64,000 nucleotides of DNA from Thermoplasmata archaeon (GTDB lineage: Archaea > Thermoplasmatota > Thermoplasmata > RBG-16-68-12): assembly GCA_035636595.1 (NCBI GenBank), contig DASPYU010000009.1, positions 31,705 to 95,704 of the forward strand, read 5' to 3'. The notes under the pieces were generated by a model, which was not told the DNA's origin, did no database searches, and worked only from the letters and a program-made list of their open reading frames with translations. This document shows, in pieces, positions 6,708 through 59,309 of the stretch (position 1 is the stretch's first letter; each line of letters begins with the position of its first letter). Made by a program: the position numbers and the translations under genes.

Positions 6708-7406
6708 TCATACGCCCGAATAGAGGCGGTCCGCGAGCTCCGTTGGGAGTCCTCCCTTCCGGATCTCCGAGGCCACGGAATCGATGTCGTACGAGACGCG
6801 CCGCACGTCGAACGTTCGGCGGGCGAGGTCGAGCACGCCCCATGCGGCGCGCGGATCCCCGTCCCGGGGCTGTCCGACGCTTCCCGGATTCACCAGGATG
6901 CCGGACCGAAATCGGAGGACCATCGGCAGGTGCGTGTGGCCCAGGATCACGAACGGCGCGGCGGCCATCCGGACCATCGCCTCGTCGGCGGTCCACAGAA
7001 AGACGTACTCGTCGTCGTTCCGCGGGCTGCCGTGGTACATGGCGACGGGGCCCTCGGGCATCGGGACGCGGATGCGGTCCTCCAGGTCCTTGAGGTATCC
7101 GACGGAGGCGGGCGTCATGTGGATCCTCGTCCAACGGATGGCCTCGGCGGCCAGCTCGTTGAACCACGACGTGTCCCCGCCGAGCACGCCCCGGTCGTGG
7201 TTGCCGCGGATCGCGCGCACCCCCCGCGCGTGCAGCAAGTCTAGGACCTCGTTCGGCCACGGATTGTAGCCGACCAAGTCGCCAGCGACCCAGATCCCGT
7301 CCGCGCCCGTGCGGTCCACGTCCGCGAGGACGGCCTGAAGGGCCGGGAGATTGGAGTGAACGTCCGAGAGGACCGCGAGGCGCAACGGCCGGCCGAAGGC
7401 CCTCAC
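6708..7406 (-). CDS. Metallophosphoesterase (calcineurin-like, YfcE/MJ0936-type)
   Basis: LSDVHSN..GDLVGY..GNHD.. metal-binding motifs in a 232-aa protein. Confidence 0.8.
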   Translation of the reverse strand: MRAFGRPLRLAVLSDVHSNLPALQAVLADVDRTGADGIWVAGDLVGYNPWPNEVLDLLHARGVRAIRGNHDRGVLGGDTSWFNELAAEAIRWTRIHMTPASVGYLKDLEDRIRVPMPEGPVAMYHGSPRNDDEYVFLWTADEAMVRMAAAPFVILGHTHLPMVLRFRSGILVNPGSVGQPRDGDPRAAWGVLDLARRTFDVRRVSYDIDSVASEIRKGGLPTELADRLYSGV

Positions 7407-7450
7407 CCTATTTCAGGCCGTCCGGAGCATTAGCCCACACTCTCCGGAGG

Positions 7451-7470
7451 TTAACCTTGTTTAAGGTTAA
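7451..7470. promoter_or_regulatory. Palindromic motif TTAACCT-N6-AGGTTAA in a divergent promoter region
   Basis: Perfect 7-bp inverted arms with an A/T-rich 6-bp spacer, lying between the divergent genes at 7406(-) and 7650(+). The same motif recurs at 47502..47521. Confidence 0.45.
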
Positions 7471-7649
7471 CATCGCGAGGCGCCCGGGTTCGGCCGTATG
7501 GTCCCCCCGAAGTCGCCCACACCAATTTCGGCCGATGGCCCCCGCTTCGCGTCAATCTGCAGGAACCAACTCGAATGCACATCTTTAATAGCCATAGGCC
7601 CCGTAGGCCGGCCATCCGAGCCCTGAAGGGATCGGATAGTAGGTAGTGA

Positions 7650-7835
7650 ATGGACGAAGACAGAGGCGGAAGACGAGGCGGAGGCGGCGGCGGTTACGAC
7701 CGAGGCCCGCGTACAATGTACGACGCGGTGTGCTCGGACTGCGGCCAAGCCACCCAGGTCCCGTTCAAACCGGACCCGGCCCGACCCGTCTACTGCCGAG
7801 ATTGTTTCGCAAAGCGCCGGCCGCGACGGTTCTAA
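7650..7835 (+). CDS. Small zinc-ribbon protein with a Gly/Arg-rich N-terminus
   Basis: 61 aa: N-terminal RGG-like stretch, then CSDCG..x16..YCRDCF (CxxC..CxxC zinc ribbon). Confidence 0.5.
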   Translation: MDEDRGGRRGGGGGGYDRGPRTMYDAVCSDCGQATQVPFKPDPARPVYCRDCFAKRRPRRF

Positions 7836-8052: not shown

Positions 8053-8229
8053 TCAGGGGCGCCGAATGGGCTTGTCCACGTAGCATCGCGCCGGATCGCC
8101 CCAGATGTACACCCGCTGGGCCCGATGCGCGCCCGTCCCTGTGATGACGAATACGCGGCCGACCTTCCGACCGACCGCGGCCAGCTTCTCCCCGGCGACG
8201 CACTCGCCGACCCCTCGAAGTTCAGCCAA
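8053..8229 (-). CDS. Hypothetical small protein immediately downstream of the RHH regulator
   Basis: ~58 aa from a TTG that overlaps the stop of the upstream regulator. No recognisable family. Confidence 0.25.
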   Translation of the reverse strand: MAELRGVGECVAGEKLAAVGRKVGRVFVITGTGAHRAQRVYIWGDPARCYVDKPIRRP

Positions 8230-8557
8230 CGACTTTCCCCTCCTTCGCCAGGGATCCCGCGATGCGGAACGCGAGGTCCAGGTCCATCCCAAGCGCTTCC
8301 GCGATATCCGTCACGTAGGTCGCGGGCCGCCCTTTCAGGTACCGCAGGACGGCGGCTCGGGCCTTCGCCTCGGTCCACTCCTTCACGACGACGATACGAG
8401 CTTCCCGGAGCTCGTCCACGTAGCTCTCCACGGCCCGCTCCACAAATTCGGTCCGCGAGCGCATTCGCGTGCGCCGAACAAGCGCATCGATCTCCTCGAG
8501 CATCTTTCGAGGCAGCCGCAGGGAAATCGTGGGTTTGCGGTTGGGTGAGGATTGCAT
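8222..8557 (-). CDS. Transcriptional regulator: ribbon-helix-helix (CopG family) N-terminus plus C-terminal winged-helix-like domain
   Basis: Start taken at the internal ATG of track ORF 8222..8671. RHH signature ISLRLPRKMLEEIDALV..RSRTEFVERAV, C-terminal part HTH-like. Tandem 9-mers overlap the start. Confidence 0.6.
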   Translation of the reverse strand: MQSSPNRKPTISLRLPRKMLEEIDALVRRTRMRSRTEFVERAVESYVDELREARIVVVKEWTEAKARAAVLRYLKGRPATYVTDIAEALGMDLDLAFRIAGSLAKEGKVVG

Positions 8558-8576
8558 GCATTGCACGCATTGCACT
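8551..8576. promoter_or_regulatory. Tandem 9-mer direct repeat (GTGCAATGC on the gene strand, ~2.8 copies) overlapping the RHH regulator start codon
   Basis: Plus strand reads ATTGCAT GCATTGCAC GCATTGCAC. RHH proteins typically bind short direct repeats, so this is a candidate autoregulatory operator. Confidence 0.4.
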
Positions 8577-8726
8577 CCCTCTACATGAAGACACGCCCTA
8601 CCGGTACGATACCCGCTTCTCCTGGGTGGATGGTCGGCCCTTTCCTCGGTTCGTTTCGCGCGGTGACGCACGGCGAGCGATGCGGGCGGTCAATCCTTAT
8701 CGTAGTCGCCTGTCTATCCGGACTCC

Positions 8727-25445: not shown

Positions 25446-26330
25446 ATGACGGCGGCCGACCGCGGGCCCCTCCTGTACGCCTATCGCCCGATCCCGGCGA
25501 ATCCGATGACGGTCGCGCTGCTGCTCCTCGTGCTCGTCGTGACGTTCCTCATCGGGCCGATCGCCGCAGGTCCGGAGGGGCTGTGGCCGCTCGGAGGATT
25601 CTGCTTCCTGCCCCTTGGCGTCCTCCTCGTCGCGATGACGGTGTACAAGCCGAGCCCCACTTTCGTATTCGAGGACGGAATCGAGATCTCGCTTCCGCTG
25701 TGGCGGCGGATCCTCGGCGAACGACGGTACTACGCCTGGTCGGAGATCCGCGACGTCTATCCGCGCAGCTACGAGGTCGCCGGCTCGTTCCTCTCGCCGT
25801 TCGCGTCGTCCGCAGGGACTCTCGTCCAGACGGGAATCGGACTGGAGACGACCGCCGGCCGCCCACTCCTGATCCGCTTCACGCCCGGCTCGATCCAGGC
25901 GTTCCGCGCCGAGACCCAAGGCTTCGTCGACGCGATGACCGTGATCCGGGATCGATTCGCGCGGCACGGCGCGCGGATGGTCACGACGGCGCGGGCGTTC
26001 AGCGACGCGGAGGTGCTCGCGATGCAGGCGCGTGCTCGGGAGCCGCTCGTCTCAATCGTCGGCGTGTTCCTCGCGTTCTTCCTTCCGCCATCGATCGTGG
26101 CGGCGATCTTGCTCGTCGCAACGGCGGTCCACGCCGAGCTCACGACGCCGCTCATCGGCATCGCTCTGGCCATCGCTCTCTTTCCCCCCGCCGCGTCGAT
26201 GGCGCGCACCCTCCGTCAGAGCGAGCGACGGAACGCGCTGCTCTCCGAACTCGCGAAGTACCAGGAACATCTCCGAGAGGATGCGGGGGCCACCTTCGCC
26301 GAATCCCGAGCCGGACAAAGTTACCCTTGA
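25446..26330 (+). CDS. Hypothetical membrane protein
   Basis: 294 aa with N- and C-terminal TM helix pairs flanking a soluble domain. No recognisable family. Confidence 0.45.
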   Translation: MTAADRGPLLYAYRPIPANPMTVALLLLVLVVTFLIGPIAAGPEGLWPLGGFCFLPLGVLLVAMTVYKPSPTFVFEDGIEISLPLWRRILGERRYYAWSEIRDVYPRSYEVAGSFLSPFASSAGTLVQTGIGLETTAGRPLLIRFTPGSIQAFRAETQGFVDAMTVIRDRFARHGARMVTTARAFSDAEVLAMQARAREPLVSIVGVFLAFFLPPSIVAAILLVATAVHAELTTPLIGIALAIALFPPAASMARTLRQSERRNALLSELAKYQEHLREDAGATFAESRAGQSYP

Positions 26331-26377
26331 ACAAGGGTAACCTGCGCGTCCCACCACGGAGCGGAGGCTGGTCTCCG

Positions 26378-27586
26378 CTAGGATTCAACCAGGCGTACCT
26401 TGTTAGGATTGCTGACGTCGTAGACGCGGCCCCGCCACCGGAGGATCCGCGGTCTTCGCGTCCGAATCAGTCCCCACGCCATGACCCACGGGACGGCTAG
26501 CGAGGCGATTGCGCTTCGCCACCCGGGAACCTTCCACGCCGCCGCGATCTCCGGGTTACCGGAGAAGAGGGCCGATCGACGGAGGATCGCCTTCGCGATC
26601 GCGAACGGCGGCGGCATGAGAAACAGGACCGCCGGGACGAGATAGATCGGACCGAGGGCGACCGAGAGCAGGAGCGACCCGATCCCGAACAGGACGGCGC
26701 CGTCCAAGACCGCGAACGACGCGACGGCGTAGCGGCGAACGATGGGCAGGTAGAGGGTCGCCATCGTCATTTGGCGCACGCACCACTCCAGGCACGTCTC
26801 GCGGGTCGCTCCCTCGAAGGTCCCAACGAGAGCCGCCGGCGCGTAGGCGATCTTGAGGCCGGCCTCGCGGACGGCTTGCGTCAACACGAGATCATCGCTG
26901 AGGACATTCTGCCACCGATCCGCCAAGTGCAAGGATCGAACCGCATCCCGACGCACCGCGCACGAACCTCCCCATGCGAACGCGCGCTTCGGGTCGAACA
27001 AGACGTTCGCGCTGACGGCGTTCCATTCCGCGCGGACGAGGGACCAGAACGTCGGCCGCGGCGGCAGATACCATCGGAACCCGGTCGCCACGCCGACGCT
27101 CGAGTCCGCGAGCGGCTGCACGAGCTGCCGCAACCAATCGTTCGTGGGTCGGATGTCGGAATCGGCGAATACGACGAGCTCGTCCTCGTCCGCCAAATGC
27201 GTGAGGGCCGATCGAAGCGCGTTCACTTTGCCTCGGAGCGGGCCCGCATCGGACACGCAGACATCGACGCGGATGCGCGGAAATTCGGCGGCGATTTCGC
27301 GCACGCGGACCGCGGCCGGATCGCCCGCCTCGTCCGCGACGACGAGCACCCGGAACCCGGGATACCGCTGCGACAGGATCGCGCATACGTTCTCATCGAA
27401 TCCCTCATCGAGGCCGCGAACCGGGAGGAGGATGACCGCTCGCGGGAGGAACGCACCGAAGCCCGAACGCATCGCGCGGCGCACGGCGGCCCGGAGCCGA
27501 ATCCCCAGGACGATGGACACGACGTTCGGAATCAGGGCCAGGAACGCGAGGACTGTCAGGGCGATCCACAGCGGATCCGAGGACAC
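26378..27586 (-). CDS. Family 2 glycosyltransferase (ceramide-glucosyltransferase/HpnI-like, membrane-bound)
   Basis: GTG internal start of track ORF 26378..28429 (the N-terminal 281 aa of the track ORF are R-rich artefact). N-terminal TM, GT2 DxD region (VVFADSDI), C-terminal TM helices. Confidence 0.7.
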   Translation of the reverse strand: MSSDPLWIALTVLAFLALIPNVVSIVLGIRLRAAVRRAMRSGFGAFLPRAVILLPVRGLDEGFDENVCAILSQRYPGFRVLVVADEAGDPAAVRVREIAAEFPRIRVDVCVSDAGPLRGKVNALRSALTHLADEDELVVFADSDIRPTNDWLRQLVQPLADSSVGVATGFRWYLPPRPTFWSLVRAEWNAVSANVLFDPKRAFAWGGSCAVRRDAVRSLHLADRWQNVLSDDLVLTQAVREAGLKIAYAPAALVGTFEGATRETCLEWCVRQMTMATLYLPIVRRYAVASFAVLDGAVLFGIGSLLLSVALGPIYLVPAVLFLMPPPFAIAKAILRRSALFSGNPEIAAAWKVPGWRSAIASLAVPWVMAWGLIRTRRPRILRWRGRVYDVSNPNKVRLVES

Positions 27587-46014: not shown

Positions 46015-47379
46015 TCAGACGGCCTCGACGAGCGCCATCTCCGTCTGGCCATGCTTCAGCGTCTCGGCGACTTCCTCGAACGCGTCGAGGTGCGCTTGCA
46101 CATCGGCCTTCGTGTGCGCGACGGACATCGTCCACTGCTCGTCGGGCCCCGTGGCCATCGGGATGACCCCGCGGTTCATCATCGCCGTGTTGTAGCCCCA
46201 CCACCGGCCCACGTCGACGTCCTGGAAGGACCGCCAATCCGTCACCTCGTGGCGGGTGAAGTGCACGGTGCCGCTGATTCCGCCGGCCTGGATCCGCATC
46301 GTGAGCCGATGGTCCCGGACGATGTCCGTGTAGCCTTTCGCGAGCGCGTTCCCCATCCGTTGCGCGTACTGCATCCCGGACCGCGTGAGGATCTTCGTCA
46401 TCGTGACGAGTCCCGCGGACATGCTGAGCGGATTCGCGTTGAAGGTCCCCGCGTGGGCGATCTGGCCGGGGATGACCTGGTCCATGATCGAGGCTTTCCC
46501 GCCGACCGCCGCCACGGGGAAGCCGCCGCCGATCGCCTTGCCGAAGACCTTTACGTCCGGGGTGACGCCGAACGCCTCCTCCGCGCCGCCGTACCACTTG
46601 CCGCACGTCTTGACCTCGTCGAAGATCAGGACCGCGCCGATCTCGTCCGCGAGGGCCCGCAACCCTTCGAGGAACCCTGGCTTCGGCTGCACGTATCCCA
46701 TGTTCATCGGGACCGGTTCGAGGATGATTCCCGCGATGTCGTCGGCGTGTTCGGTCGCGAGAGCCTCGGTCGACGCGAGGTCGTTGAAGGGCGCGATCAC
46801 CGCAGTCTCGACGAGTTCCTTCAGGAGGCCCTTCGAGGACGGCACGGGGTTCGGACGCTTCGGGTCGCCCGAGACCTCTTTCCGCGGCTTGATGGAGACC
46901 ATGAGCGCGTCGTGCGAGCCGTGGTAGCAGCCTTCAAACTTCAGGATCCGCTTGCGGCCCGTGACGGCCCGCGCGAGGCGCACAGAGAACAGGGTCGCGT
47001 CCAAGCCGGACATCGAGAACTTGAGGCGGTCGACCGCGAAGCGCTTGCAGATGTGCTCCGCGAGCGGCCCGGCATCGGCGGACTCGTATCCGAAGATCGT
47101 GCCGTTCGAGACGCGCTCCCGCATTGCCTTCGCGAGGATGGGATGGCTGTGGCCCGCGACGAGCGCGCCGAAGGCCATGTTGAAGTCGATGTACTCGTTG
47201 CCGTCGACGTCCCAGACGCGCGATCCTTTGGCCTTGCGGACGAACAGCGGATGCGGGTCCACGAGGCGGTAGTTGCTATTCACCCCGGAAGGAATGTGCC
47301 GCTTCGCGGCCTCCCAGGCGCGCGCGGACTTCCTCGTCCGCCGCTGAAACGTCTGGAGCTCTTCCTCCCACATTTGCAT
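46015..47379 (-). CDS. Class III aminotransferase (HemL-like family), second copy
   Basis: 454 aa: IPSGVNS.., GSR.WDVDGNEYIDF, class III PLP fold. Paralogous to 43288..44598. Confidence 0.8.
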   Translation of the reverse strand: MQMWEEELQTFQRRTRKSARAWEAAKRHIPSGVNSNYRLVDPHPLFVRKAKGSRVWDVDGNEYIDFNMAFGALVAGHSHPILAKAMRERVSNGTIFGYESADAGPLAEHICKRFAVDRLKFSMSGLDATLFSVRLARAVTGRKRILKFEGCYHGSHDALMVSIKPRKEVSGDPKRPNPVPSSKGLLKELVETAVIAPFNDLASTEALATEHADDIAGIILEPVPMNMGYVQPKPGFLEGLRALADEIGAVLIFDEVKTCGKWYGGAEEAFGVTPDVKVFGKAIGGGFPVAAVGGKASIMDQVIPGQIAHAGTFNANPLSMSAGLVTMTKILTRSGMQYAQRMGNALAKGYTDIVRDHRLTMRIQAGGISGTVHFTRHEVTDWRSFQDVDVGRWWGYNTAMMNRGVIPMATGPDEQWTMSVAHTKADVQAHLDAFEEVAETLKHGQTEMALVEAV

Positions 47380-47501
47380 GATATCGATGGGTCTGCGCGT
47401 CGGAAGGCGCGCATACTATAAACCGTTTCGCGAGAAATTCGAATCACGTTGCGAGTTACTCCATTGGAGGCCGTTCGGAGACCATCGGCACGATGAATGA
47501 A

Positions 47502-47521
47502 TTAACCTTAAACGAGGTTAA
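47502..47521. promoter_or_regulatory. Second copy of the palindromic motif TTAACCT-N6-AGGTTAA in a divergent promoter region
   Basis: Arms identical to the site at 7451..7470, with an A/T-rich spacer. It lies between the divergent aminotransferase (-) and D-aminoacylase (+) genes. Confidence 0.45.
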
Positions 47522-47596
47522 CTTCACGCTGCGTCCCGATCGCTTCCGACGGCCCGAGCGAATGACGTTATACACTCCGCTCCTCTTTGGGCGGCC

Positions 47597-49234
47597 GTGG
47601 CCTTCGACATCGTGATCCGAGATGGCCGCGTCCTCGACGGGACGGGCGCGACATGGAGGGCCGCGGACATCGGCGTTCGTCGTGGCGTGATCGCCCGCGT
47701 GGGACGCTTCGGAAAATCGAAGGCCGGTCGCACGATCGACGCGAAGGGCCTCTACGTCGCGCCGGGCTTCATCGACATCCACACGCACAGCGACGTCGGG
47801 ATCCTCGTCGAGCCGACCGCCGACTGCGCCGTGCGGCAAGGCGTGACGACCCATGTGATCGGGAACTGCGGCGATTCGCCCGCGCCGATCGGGGAGGCGT
47901 ACCGCGACCTCGCGGTACGGCGGTTCGAGTACTACGCGCTGGCGAGGGATTGGACCTGGTCGACGTACCGCGAGTACCTCGCATACATGGAGCGGACCGG
48001 CGTCGGCATCAACATCGCCGGCCTCGTCGGGCATGGGAGCGCGCGGCTCGCGGTGATGGGGTTCGAGGAGCGGCCTCCGACGCGGGACGAGCTGCGGGCC
48101 ATGAAGGCCCACGTGGACGAGGCGATGCGCGCCGGCGCGTTCGGGATGAGCACGGGGCTCGTGTACCCGCCGGGGTGCTTCGCCGACACGGAGGAGGTCG
48201 TCGAGCTCGCGCGGGTCGTCGCGCGGCGCAGCGGCTTCTACGCCTCGCACATCCGCGGGGAGCGGGAGACGATCGTCGACGCGGTCCGGGAATGCATCGA
48301 GATCGGCGAGATGGCGGGATGCCCGGTCCAGATCAGCCACAACAACCCGAAGTACGGCGGCCTCGGGAAGTCGGACGAGATCCAGGCCCTCTGGGAAGCG
48401 GCACGGGCGCGCGGCATCGACGTCCTCGCAGACAACGATGCGCACACGGACTTCGGGCCGCCGCTCAGCCATGCGTTGCCGCAATGGACGCAGAAGCTGA
48501 CGACGGACGAACGCATCGCGATGCTGCGGGACCCCGCGAAGCGAGAGGACCTGAAGTCCGAGATCAAGGCCGACAAGCGCCCCGGTGCCGGATACGTCGG
48601 CTTGCTCGTCCATGAACGGTTCGACCGAATCTGGATCCTGCGGTGTCTGGGTGATCCCGCCAAGGAAGGGCTCACGTTCGCGCAGCTCGCGGAGCGTCGC
48701 GGCGTTGATCCGTGGACCGCGTTCTTCGACGTGATCGTCGACGAACGGGACGCGGCCGTCGGCCTATTCGACTACATGGACCCGGAGGAGATCAAGCGGA
48801 CGTTGCGGCACCCGCTCGTCATGATCTGCTCCGACGGGTGGGTCGCGCCGAAGGACGCCCGCACCTCGCCGACGGCGCCGTACCAACCGTGCACCTACGG
48901 CGAATTCCCGGGGATCCTGGAGCGGTTCGTCGTGAAGGAACACGTGCTCCGCCTGGAGGATGCGATCCACAAGATGACGGGGATGCCCGCCGCGCGACTC
49001 GGCCTCGGGGACCGGGGCCTCCTCCGGCCCGGATTCGCCGCAGATGTCGTCGTCTTCGACTTGCCGCGCGTCCGCGATCGCGCGACGAACCTGTGGCCTC
49101 ACACGCATCCGTTCGAGAATTATCCCCATGGCCACCCGGAGGGGATCGACTGGGTCCTCGTGAACGGGACCGTGGCGGTCGAGCAAGGAGAGCCGACCGG
49201 GGCGCTCGCGGGACGGGTCTTGCGGCACCCCTAA
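47597..49234 (+). CDS. N-acyl-D-amino-acid deacylase (D-aminoacylase), amidohydrolase superfamily
   Basis: 545 aa with the metal-binding HTHSD motif (GFIDIHTHSD). Full-length similarity to D-aminoacylases. Confidence 0.8.
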   Translation: MAFDIVIRDGRVLDGTGATWRAADIGVRRGVIARVGRFGKSKAGRTIDAKGLYVAPGFIDIHTHSDVGILVEPTADCAVRQGVTTHVIGNCGDSPAPIGEAYRDLAVRRFEYYALARDWTWSTYREYLAYMERTGVGINIAGLVGHGSARLAVMGFEERPPTRDELRAMKAHVDEAMRAGAFGMSTGLVYPPGCFADTEEVVELARVVARRSGFYASHIRGERETIVDAVRECIEIGEMAGCPVQISHNNPKYGGLGKSDEIQALWEAARARGIDVLADNDAHTDFGPPLSHALPQWTQKLTTDERIAMLRDPAKREDLKSEIKADKRPGAGYVGLLVHERFDRIWILRCLGDPAKEGLTFAQLAERRGVDPWTAFFDVIVDERDAAVGLFDYMDPEEIKRTLRHPLVMICSDGWVAPKDARTSPTAPYQPCTYGEFPGILERFVVKEHVLRLEDAIHKMTGMPAARLGLGDRGLLRPGFAADVVVFDLPRVRDRATNLWPHTHPFENYPHGHPEGIDWVLVNGTVAVEQGEPTGALAGRVLRHP

Positions 49235-49305: not shown

Positions 49306-49872
49306 TTGGAGCTAACGGGCGTTCTCAAGGCCAAGATCTGCATGATCGGCGAGGCCGCCGTCGGCAAGACTTCGCTGATCCGGCGGTACGTCGAGGACGC
49401 GTTCGAGGATCGGTACATCTCGACGCTCGGAAGCAAGGTCAGCCTCAAACGGATCTGGCTCACGCCGAAGAGCGATCCGGGCAAGCAACTCGAGGTCCAG
49501 CTTTCGATCTGGGACCTCATCGGAGAGCGTTCGTACCTGGAGTCGCTTCACCAGGAATACCTGCGCGGCTCGCAAGGCATCATCGCCGTGTGCGATGTGA
49601 CTCGCTACTCCTCGTTCGAGGCGCTGGATCAATGGATCCCGGCGGCCCTTCGCATATCGGGCGAAGTACCCATCGCGATCATCGTCAACAAGACGGACCT
49701 GAAAGACCAGGTCATGGTCCTCTACGACGAGAACGAGCCGCAGCAGAAGGCGGAGAAGTATGGCGGCTTCGCGGCGTGGACAAGCGCGAAGTCGGGTGAG
49801 AACGTGAATCCCGTCTTCGGCCGTCTTGTCCTCGGAATCGTGAGGCGGATCGCGACCGCTGACGCGGATTAG
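49306..49872 (+). CDS. Small Ras-superfamily GTPase (Rab/Ras-like)
   Basis: TTG start. G1 GEAAVGKTS, switch-I Thr (YISTLG), G3 WDLIGE (DxxG with Glu where Ras has Gln61), G4 NKTD, G5 SAK. Confidence 0.7.
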   Translation: MELTGVLKAKICMIGEAAVGKTSLIRRYVEDAFEDRYISTLGSKVSLKRIWLTPKSDPGKQLEVQLSIWDLIGERSYLESLHQEYLRGSQGIIAVCDVTRYSSFEALDQWIPAALRISGEVPIAIIVNKTDLKDQVMVLYDENEPQQKAEKYGGFAAWTSAKSGENVNPVFGRLVLGIVRRIATADAD

Positions 49873-54124: not shown

Positions 54125-55006
54125 TCACGATCTCACTGGCATGGCCAAGGCGGATTTCGAAATCTCTGCGCGCACGAGGCCGTGGGCGAAGTCCGTCCCG
54201 ATGAACATCTCGCGATTCAGGGTGATGCGGAAGGACTCAACCCCCGGGAGTTTCCCGAGGGCGTGGGTCTTTGTCGTGACCTCACCGAGATTGCTCGCGC
54301 GGCAGAGGAGGTACTTCGCCGGCGGCTCCTGCGCCTCGTGCACGACAAACGCGTCTCCGAGAACGCCTCGCAACGCCGCCGAGGGAGCCGCGCCGAAGAC
54401 CGCGATGTGATAGACGAGTTCTCCGGCATCCGCGAGTGCGCCGAGGAGGGGCACGATCGAAACCGTCTCCGTCCGTAGCATCCGGTCGAGATGCTTTCGC
54501 ACCGTCTTTGGACTCAGGCCGGTTGAGGCCGCAAGATCCTCGATCGAGAGAACGGGTCCGTCGATTACCGCTTCGATAATCCGCCAGTCGAGTCGCGACA
54601 ACGGATCACGAGGGGTTCCGTGGGCGATCGCGTGGCCCGCGGGGGTCTGTCGCAACACCTTCGCCAGAGTGGCGAGGCTCTGATCCACGTTTCGGGACCA
54701 CGTTTCAATCGTGATCCCTCCGTCGAGCTTCCATGCGACCCACGCGACGTCCGGCGCGTCCAGGGCGGCGGCCTGGGCCTCCTCTCGGGACCAGTCCCCA
54801 TCGAAGAAGACGAGGAGATCTTCGCGGCCGAAGACGACCGGATCGATGGAAGTCCAGAATCCTTTGAGGATCCCGCGTCGCTCGAGCCGCCGCAGCCGAC
54901 CGCGGACGGCGGGTGCCGAGAGCGAGACCCCGCGGCCCAGGGATTGGAGACTCTGCCTCGAGTTCTCGTAGAGGGCGACCAGCAGCCGGAAGTCCTTCGA
55001 ATCCAC
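54125..55006 (-). CDS. Transcriptional regulator with two tandem Lrp/AsnC-type HTH domains
   Basis: DFRLLVALYENSRQSLQSLGRGVSLSAPAVRGRLRRLERRGIL and DWRIIEAVIDGPVLSIEDLAASTGLSPKTVRKHLDRM, both HTH_AsnC-like. Confidence 0.6.
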   Translation of the reverse strand: MDSKDFRLLVALYENSRQSLQSLGRGVSLSAPAVRGRLRRLERRGILKGFWTSIDPVVFGREDLLVFFDGDWSREEAQAAALDAPDVAWVAWKLDGGITIETWSRNVDQSLATLAKVLRQTPAGHAIAHGTPRDPLSRLDWRIIEAVIDGPVLSIEDLAASTGLSPKTVRKHLDRMLRTETVSIVPLLGALADAGELVYHIAVFGAAPSAALRGVLGDAFVVHEAQEPPAKYLLCRASNLGEVTTKTHALGKLPGVESFRITLNREMFIGTDFAHGLVRAEISKSALAMPVRS

Positions 55007-58944: not shown

Positions 58945-59157
58945 CTACGGACCGGTCTCCGGCATCTCCGGCTCGCTCAGCGCCACCATCGCGGGCTCCC
59001 TACGCCGGGCTGCCCGCTTCTTTGGCTTCGAGACCTTGATTTTTTCCTGCGGGGGACGCCGAAGATGCGCCTCCGCCTTCATGATGTCCTCGAATTCCGC
59101 ATCGCACGTGCATTTGTAAACGGTTTTTTGTTCGACGTAGATGCTATGTCCTTTCAC
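58945..59157 (-). CDS. Hypothetical small basic protein with a C-x-C..H motif
   Basis: 70 aa, K/R-rich (..YKCTCDAEFEDIMKAEAHLRR..KIKVSKPKKRAARRR..), in an AT-richer region. Uncertain. Confidence 0.3.
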   Translation of the reverse strand: MKGHSIYVEQKTVYKCTCDAEFEDIMKAEAHLRRPPQEKIKVSKPKKRAARRREPAMVALSEPEMPETGP

Positions 59158-59309
59158 CGCACGTCACCGGAATTCGCAACCTACCTGTCCCCCACTTATA
59201 GTATTGCGAGAGGGTATCGCGTTTGGAAAAAAGGGATATCCAGAGTCCACTCGCGAAAGCTACTTAGCAGGCCGCGGCGCTAACGATTCACCGCCACGGG
59301 GAGGATTCG

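Follow-up and report, generated by a model that had tools for sequence, protein, structure and literature searches.

The question raised by this locus is why one short inverted repeat should stand between two separate pairs of divergently transcribed genes, and which protein, if any, would read it. In this study, we have followed up the initial annotation of a 64,000-nucleotide stretch of Thermoplasmata DNA (hereafter the window), which had described the pattern TTAACCT-N6-AGGTTAA at two intergenic positions as a possible regulator binding site. Inspection of the sequence found both 20-mers exactly as claimed, and the reverse complement of site 1 is identical to site 2 at 19/20 positions, spacer included. 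The count of two was incomplete, as a third perfect palindrome of the same family had been missed. Both 20-mers are parts of a 22-bp palindrome, GTTA[A/C]CCTT-RWWY-AAGG[T/G]TAAC, which in half-site form reads GTTAACCTT-RWWY-AAGGTTAAC (Table 1). Recurrence by chance had been judged improbable and this judgement was upheld: with two mismatches tolerated, TTAACCT-N6-AGGTTAA did not occur once in 100 dinucleotide-preserving shuffles, against three sites in the 64 kb, and the repeat is thus non-random at several promoters of one genome. The window has a GC content of 0.60-0.68, and the hexamer TTAACC occurs in it at sites 1 and 2 only. Scans of the window for Rfam families and tRNAs returned two tRNAs, both away from the sites, and GTTAAC showed no depletion of the kind that would hint at restriction-modification (3 copies in the window vs 2.7 expected under a first-order Markov model). 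When the flanks of sites 1 and 2 were aligned in both orientations, the only similarity beyond the palindrome was a 13-mer, AGGCCGTYCGGAG (7415-7427 and 47468-47480), which, on the plus strand, lies 20-23 bp to the left of either site and has no further copy in the window. Orthologous regions do not retain it and, as the estimated chance of such a match is about 4% (p ~0.04), it is probably a coincidence.

Table 1. Positions of the palindromes, neighbouring genes and promoter elements in the window, and of related elements at other loci (locus:position).
Feature	Position	Strand	Sequence or remark
Metallophosphoesterase gene	6708..7385	-	Pfam Metallophos_2; start revised to TTG 7385 (MRLAVLSDVH...)
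TATA-like box of metallophosphoesterase	7408..7415	-	TGAAATAG; 22 nt before start codon, 34 nt from site 1
Site 1	7450..7471		GTTAACCTTGTTTAAGGTTAAC; perfect 22-bp palindrome, 9-bp arms, ACC class
20-mer of site 1	7451-7470		TTAACCTTGTTTAAGGTTAA; located by sequence
TATA-like box of zinc-ribbon gene	7585-7592		TTTAATAG; 113 nt from site 1
Zinc-ribbon gene	7650..7835	+	Pfam zf_Tbcl_2
Conserved membrane protein gene	25446..26330	+	Function without assignment; stop codon inside site 3
Site 3	26320..26341		GTTACCCTTGAACAAGGGTAAC; perfect palindrome of the same family, CCC class
Class III aminotransferase gene	46015..47379	-	Pfam Aminotran_3
TATA box of aminotransferase	47415-47422	-	TTTATAGT; 78 nt from site 2; conserved in L007, L008, L010
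Site 2	47501..47522		ATTAACCTTAAACGAGGTTAAC; ACC class, 2 deviations from consensus
20-mer of site 2	47502-47521		TTAACCTTAAACGAGGTTAA; located by sequence
TATA-like box of D-aminoacylase-like gene	47567-47574		GTTATACA; 22 nt before GTG start, 44 nt from site 2
D-aminoacylase-like gene	47597..49234	+	Pfam Amidohydro_3; GTG start
Site 3 orthologs	L249:2374-2395; L251:2372-2393
Palindrome arrays	L061:620-814; L132:984-1125; L080:1998-2517; L077:6095-6539; L099:6095-6174
Fibrillarin loci with winged-helix partner	L051, L072, L076, L104, L151
Longer hairpins of candidate-phyla-radiation bacteria	L054:5832; L067:2415; L078:6376; L090:4343; L155:4060

The gene context given in the initial annotation was confirmed by Pfam, with the metallophosphoesterase and zinc-ribbon genes diverging around site 1 and site 2 lying between the divergent aminotransferase and D-aminoacylase-like genes; exact-protein look-ups for the D-aminoacylase and zinc-ribbon proteins gave no match. 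For the metallophosphoesterase, the longest open reading frame (6708-7406) over-extends the gene, as the tblastn alignment of six orthologs begins at TTG 7385 and all six promoters keep a TATA-like box (cTGAAATAG, cTGATATAG or AGATATAG) 22 nt before the start codon that aligns with this TTG. From the corrected start, site 1 occupies -65 to -86. The palindrome had also been suspected of overlapping TATA-like elements, which is not the case at sites 1 and 2, since the four flanking genes have TATA-like boxes of their own 34-113 bp away. The zinc-ribbon gene, whose box is the most remote, is probably not controlled from site 1, judging from this distance. Directly downstream of the D-aminoacylase-like gene lies a gene for a Ras/Roc-family small GTPase (49306-49872), which is kept at the orthologous loci L007, L008 and L010 and is present in two tandem copies in L008.

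We compared orthologous aminotransferase/amidohydrolase loci with 72-82% protein identity. The site 2 palindrome is kept in L008 (GTTAACCTTAAACAAGGTTAAC) and in L007 (GTTACCCTTATCAAAGGGTAAC, with the A-to-C / T-to-G variant also seen at site 3 of the window), where the flanks have diverged (79-82% protein identity), and it is absent in L010, the most distant of the aligned loci. In the metallophosphoesterase orthologs, a palindrome starting 87-115 bp upstream is found in three of the six (L052, L100 and L126), the corresponding distance in the window being 86 bp. Together with the orthologs of site 3 described below, the aminotransferase spacer and the metallophosphoesterase promoters show conservation at orthologous positions while the flanks diverge. 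As far as sequence comparison can tell, the palindrome is a conserved cis-element, neither a chance repeat nor a mobile element, and at the window sites it is not a TATA box.

How far this element extends was seen by scanning one genome per species (185,579 species) with the pattern GTTAMCCTTNNNNAAGGKTAAC. At least 115 blocks were returned and, among the matches listed, about 89 come from Thermoplasmata, "Methanobacteriota" or "Euryarchaeota" MAGs with a GC content of 0.48-0.72, Methanomassiliicoccales-like genomes included; a single MAG holds at least 13 strict sites. The remaining matches are in scattered bacteria and are mostly longer hairpins without relation to the motif, and a control scan of viral contigs gave 39 matches, all of them AT-rich longer hairpins and none related. 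Candidate-phyla-radiation bacteria (Nomurabacteria, Saccharibacteria) carry several copies per genome of a longer hairpin, (g)aaggGTTACCCTT-N4-AAGGGTAACcctt(c), distinct from the archaeal sites, that may be a REP-like or terminator element. Among the archaeal matches listed, the borders of the motif are sharp at 22 bp with no information in the flanks, and the spacer is limited to RWWY (AAAC/GTTT at 42 sites, GAAC/GTTC at 20 and AAGT/ACTT at 14). At positions 5 and 18 of the strict sites listed, we counted 83 A..T and 12 C..G pairs and no hybrids, against the roughly 21 hybrids that independent variation of the halves should give. With respect to the downstream gene, the asymmetric spacer showed no more than a weak bias in orientation, in sites that are non-independent.

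These sites favour promoter regions. Of 95 listed sites, 70 lie outside called open reading frames against 12.9% of non-genic sequence (P ~1e-41, a figure that overstates independence since many sites are orthologous, and that uses approximate calls from a crude GC3-based caller), and most of those scored inside an open reading frame fall in the 5' ends of over-extended ones. Among the matches listed, 32 sites are in divergent, 26 in tandem and 4 in convergent contexts, and the facing start codon is most often 40-100 bp away (56/92). Conventional TATA boxes are found 20-28 nt before the start codons, between site and gene, so that the transcripts, with start sites read from these TATA-like boxes, look mostly leaderless and the site usually appears to stand just upstream of the core promoter. 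Three sites in the 64-kb window and some 20 further ones in 493 kb of partly redundant metagenome flanks correspond to about one per 20-25 kb, from which one would expect a genome to hold between some tens and about a hundred sites. In low-GC Thermoplasmata or Methanomassiliicoccales-like MAGs, the palindrome also forms arrays of 3-5 same-orientation copies 57-62 bp apart; in one of them (L061) a two-site unit is duplicated in tandem (115 bp) and no small gene of the type described below was detected beside the array. Genome-wide occurrence in the lineage, enrichment in promoter-containing intergenic regions and conservation at orthologous promoters support the regulator-site behaviour proposed initially. 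Literature searches for the sequence and for Thermoplasmata motifs returned nothing relevant.

The genes that face the sites encode an HflX-type GTPase, a KaiC-like ATPase, fibrillarin, ThiS/MoaD, MoeA, diphthamide synthase, creatininase, a GT2 glycosyltransferase, pterin-4a-carbinolamine dehydratase and enoyl-CoA hydratase and, judged from their sequences, ribosomal protein L3, RpiA and Ku. Such diverse targets, GTPase, cofactor and translation-related genes among them, indicate a broad regulon rather than the amino-acid-specific one that had been considered. The initial annotation had also pointed to Lrp/AsnC or ribbon-helix-helix (RHH) regulators as binders, and an AsnC-type gene (54125-55006) and an RHH gene (8222-8671) do lie within several kb of the sites. 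Known Lrp boxes are AT-rich and 13-15 bp long; the palindrome resembles them in being AT-rich, imperfectly palindromic and placed in promoter regions of amino-acid metabolism genes, but it is longer, has GC-containing arms and diverse targets, and is not accompanied by a recurrent Lrp gene. Neither gene type recurs beside the sites in about 170 related loci, where the recurrent neighbour is a protein of 75-80 aa, and none is present within 3 kb at L007, L008 and L010. An Lrp/AsnC regulon site is not supported, the nearest Lrp/AsnC gene of the window being about 6.6 kb away and the consensus being a 22-bp GTTAACCTT inverted repeat. The several copies per genome could instead recall a small repetitive mobile element, and bacterial REP elements and archaeal MITEs are likewise short palindromes with several intergenic copies. 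Unlike them, our element has no extended flanks (similarity ends at 22 bp), is found at conserved orthologous positions, has a low copy number and is biased to the promoter sides of genes. A REP or MITE origin is not supported either, in view of the absence of flank information, the orthologous positions and the failure of the flanks of sites 1 and 2 to align. A mobile element, or a binding site for an Lrp/AsnC or RHH regulator encoded nearby, can practically be discounted as an explanation of the palindrome.

Site 3 raises a different issue. It stands between the membrane protein gene and a convergent GT2 glycosyltransferase open reading frame that ends at 26378, a placement which is unexpected for a promoter operator and is shared with 4 of 95 related sites among the matches listed. 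A further inverted repeat, AGCGGAG-N6-CTCCGCT (26364-26383), follows directly after it and overlaps the stop codon of the GT2 gene. A palindrome is present at the position of site 3 in the orthologs L251/L252 (ATTAACCTTAAACAAGGTTAAC) and L249/L250 (GTTAACCCCGAACCGGGTTAAC), and its class switches between them, being CCC in the window, ACC in L251 and GTTAACCCC...GGGTTAAC in L249. The substitutions are symmetric, as they would also be if hairpin pairing had to survive, and this brings in the reading of the element as a nucleic-acid hairpin, that is an RNA stem-loop acting on stability or termination in untranslated regions, or a DNA cruciform. Its arms are indeed perfect 9-10-bp inverted repeats, the changes at positions 5 and 18 of strict sites are always symmetric, and site 3, at convergent 3' ends and over a stop codon, keeps its palindromy while its sequence changes. 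Against a hairpin, most sites lie between divergent promoters and upstream of TATA boxes, where transcription is unlikely, and the primary sequence is conserved beyond mere pairing over genomes of GC 0.48-0.72. Furthermore, one-sided changes at the promoter sites of the small gene described below break the pairing (ATTAACC...GGTTGAC; ...GGTTAAA), and the site is not followed by a T-tract and has no Rfam match. We regard the hairpin as very unlikely.

The argument for an operator becomes more specific with the gene most often found beside it. Clustering of the genes facing the sites gave, as the commonest (22 of 89 blocks among the matches listed), one for a protein of 75-80 aa with the pattern MQ(V/I)GCG..K.I.G..Y.YFW.YE..GGR..Q.Y.Y.G followed by a helix. 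In these blocks, which were ascertained through the motif, the site lies a fixed distance ahead of the start codon (14-15 bp in the high-GC clade, 38 bp in the low-GC clade), and the low-GC arrays usually end at the same 38 bp. In a reverse test, class-A genes (the class of the ACC palindrome) were sought in metagenomes by protein homology, independently of the motif, and of the 66 genes that could be evaluated, 65 have the palindrome (at most 3 mismatches) 13-15 bp ahead of the start codon. The assembly GCA_009772795.1, reported as that of the window (locus tags VEO20_), encodes one of them (P0135 / VEO20_06020, contig WNGH01000001.1), with GTTAACCTTAAGTAAGGTTGAC 13 bp before its GTG start, a divergent HflX-type GTPase gene and ThiS/MoaD and MoaE genes downstream; a ribonucleotide reductase that carries an intein and a LAGLIDADG domain is encoded on the same contig (L245:1-734). 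In the window itself, tblastn for the small protein returned only a 13-residue match containing a stop codon (59149-59187), which is not a homolog.

The small protein is very basic (pI 9.2-10.6) and belongs to no Pfam or NCBIfam family, and the PDB holds no sequence relative. Its database copies are all named "hypothetical protein" and all come from Thermoplasmata-type MAGs, and a profile search of 1.84 billion cluster representatives found only 104 relatives, nearly all of them stand-alone proteins of 70-115 aa. The predicted fold is a three-stranded beta-sheet with one long helix. We set it beside the beta-sheet DNA-binding domains of the AP2/ERF and integrase arm types and the part of the PI-SceI homing endonuclease that recognises DNA; Foldseek with the predicted fold gave nothing significant, the best matches being COMM and Sub1/PC4 domains (E ~0.08). 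Given the lack of a significant match, we leave the model without family assignment and would call it "beta3-alpha, AP2-like at best".

The palindrome varies together with this protein. The letters at positions 5-7 of the palindrome are ACC in 47 of 63 non-redundant class-A genes (ACC/ACC), CCC in all five of class C (CCC/CCC) and TAG or TGG (GTTATAGTTAAATAACTATAAC) in all nine of class III, and the low-GC clade has ACC, at 38 bp, in six genes of six. The class III paralog (GCGVYEH.VRG...) thus has a different palindrome, GTTAT(A/G)GTTAAATAAC(T/C)ATAAC, in the same position and within an identical outer frame. Members of classes A and C are found together in single MAGs (e.g. EA_10 and EA_11), which would account for the presence of ACC as well as CCC sites in the window and for the lack of hybrids among strict sites. 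The residues that differ between the protein classes are in strands 1 and 3, and strand 2 (YLYFWHYE) is invariant, a distribution that would fit operator recognition by the beta-sheet. The small gene has the site at its own promoter, and protein and operator co-vary; this is only a correlation, as the identity of the regulator is inferred.

A competing reading is that the palindrome is the operator of one or more different regulators, with the small protein as no more than the best conserved of their targets, its gene heading, for example, a small-protein/ThiS(MoaD)/MoaE operon. The small gene does lie directly upstream of ThiS and MoaE genes, so that a metabolic role of its product is possible, and no known DNA-binding domain matches the predicted fold significantly. 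A winged-helix protein of 161 aa also recurs beside the sites, divergent from fibrillarin (6 blocks among the matches listed). On the other side, the small protein is very basic, no other DNA-binding gene is near the sites as often among the matches listed, and three paralog classes each have a distinct palindrome in the same 13-15 bp geometry, so that three further unseen regulators would have had to diversify together with their targets. Based on this, we hold another regulator to be rather unlikely. As to the protein divergent from fibrillarin, it has a coiled coil and a winged helix in 161-170 aa (with weak Penicillinase_R / HTH_5 matches) and the palindrome lies between the two genes in at least five MAGs; this protein is possibly another regulator that belongs to the regulon.

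Our preferred reading, which we consider probable on these comparative grounds, is that the palindrome is the operator of an autoregulated, lineage-specific Thermoplasmata regulator with a large regulon, the small basic protein being the most likely candidate binder. DNA binding by this protein, its dimerisation and the sign of regulation are what we infer from the comparative genomics of uncultured organisms. In the proposed mechanism, the 22-bp palindrome would be read as two half-sites of 9-10 bp by a homodimer, most likely of the basic 75-80 aa protein of an undescribed family, for which the expected motif would be GTTAACCTTRWWYAAGGTTAAC. At the small gene, where the site is 13-15 bp before the start codon and the transcript is probably leaderless, the palindrome would cover about -15 to -36 from the probable start. 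That promoter has no TATA-like sequence other than the centre of the palindrome, TTAAGTAA or TTAAATAA; as the AT-rich centre TTAAGTAA occupies the TATA position, a bound dimer would be expected to block TBP/TFB and to produce negative autoregulation. Sites 1 and 2 stand 34-78 nt upstream of separate TATA boxes, from where the regulator might activate or modulate the recruitment of basal factors, and archaeal regulators that bind upstream of BRE/TATA (SurR, TrmBL1, Ptr2) usually activate. The paralogs would read the variant palindromes, and the CCC site 3 of the window may belong to a second paralog.

The same position at the small gene could also be taken to mean that the palindrome is no regulator site at all but a symmetric core promoter (BRE-TATA-BRE) used by TBP/TFB for bidirectional transcription. 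At this gene the site lies at about -15 to -36, has a TATA-like centre and is accompanied by no other TATA box, and GTTAAC presumably bears a loose resemblance to a BRE. Nevertheless, at the four flanking genes of the window, as at most other targets, a separate and conserved TATA box precedes the start by 20-28 nt (35 nt for the aminotransferase), and the common spacers AAAC and GAAC make poor TATA boxes. In addition, the variants of the palindrome track the class of the adjacent protein, which basal factors would not require. The notion of a common TATA/BRE arrangement, also raised by the initial annotation, thus fails at the window sites and is left standing only at the small protein's own gene; as a general explanation, we find it highly improbable.

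An autoregulated operator of this kind would have close parallels in archaea. The SurR operator is GTT-N3-AAC, that of TrmB/TrmBL1 TATCAC-N5-GTGATA, and that of Phr has a TAAC-N5-GTTA core. Our palindrome resembles them as a dimer-type inverted repeat that stands ahead of BRE/TATA at most targets and covers the core promoter of the candidate regulator's own gene, an arrangement that would imply autoregulation and a multi-gene regulon. Its sequence is unrelated to theirs and the site is longer, 22 bp with 9-10 conserved bp per half-site, and the candidate binder, which falls in no Pfam or NCBIfam family, is neither a winged-helix nor another HTH protein. The kind of system is therefore familiar, with a palindromic operator, autoregulation and position-dependent action, while the candidate regulator is in no described family.

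The Thermoplasmata of soils and sediments, abundant and uncultured, are essentially undescribed in their gene regulation. Our results offer for these organisms a defined cis-element with a regulon of translation-related, cofactor and metabolic genes, and a candidate regulator that is easily expressed and comes from a family without annotation. The motif also helps annotation, in the placement of promoters and in the correction of start codons such as that of the metallophosphoesterase (7385). We lean, if only slightly, toward the wider view that a family of very small (75-80 aa) beta-sheet DNA-binding regulators, overlooked so far and restricted to Thermoplasmata and their relatives, acts through the 22-bp palindrome on a large regulon, with tens to about a hundred sites per genome, its paralogs having split into at least three protein/operator pairs (ACC, CCC and TAG/TGG at positions 5-7). 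If this is true, these pairs would represent a naturally occurring recognition code for a new fold of archaeal transcription factors. The operator variants, three in number and each specific to a paralog class, provide a built-in test of specificity and, if binding is confirmed, they would open a route to the DNA-recognition code of a new small DNA-binding fold.
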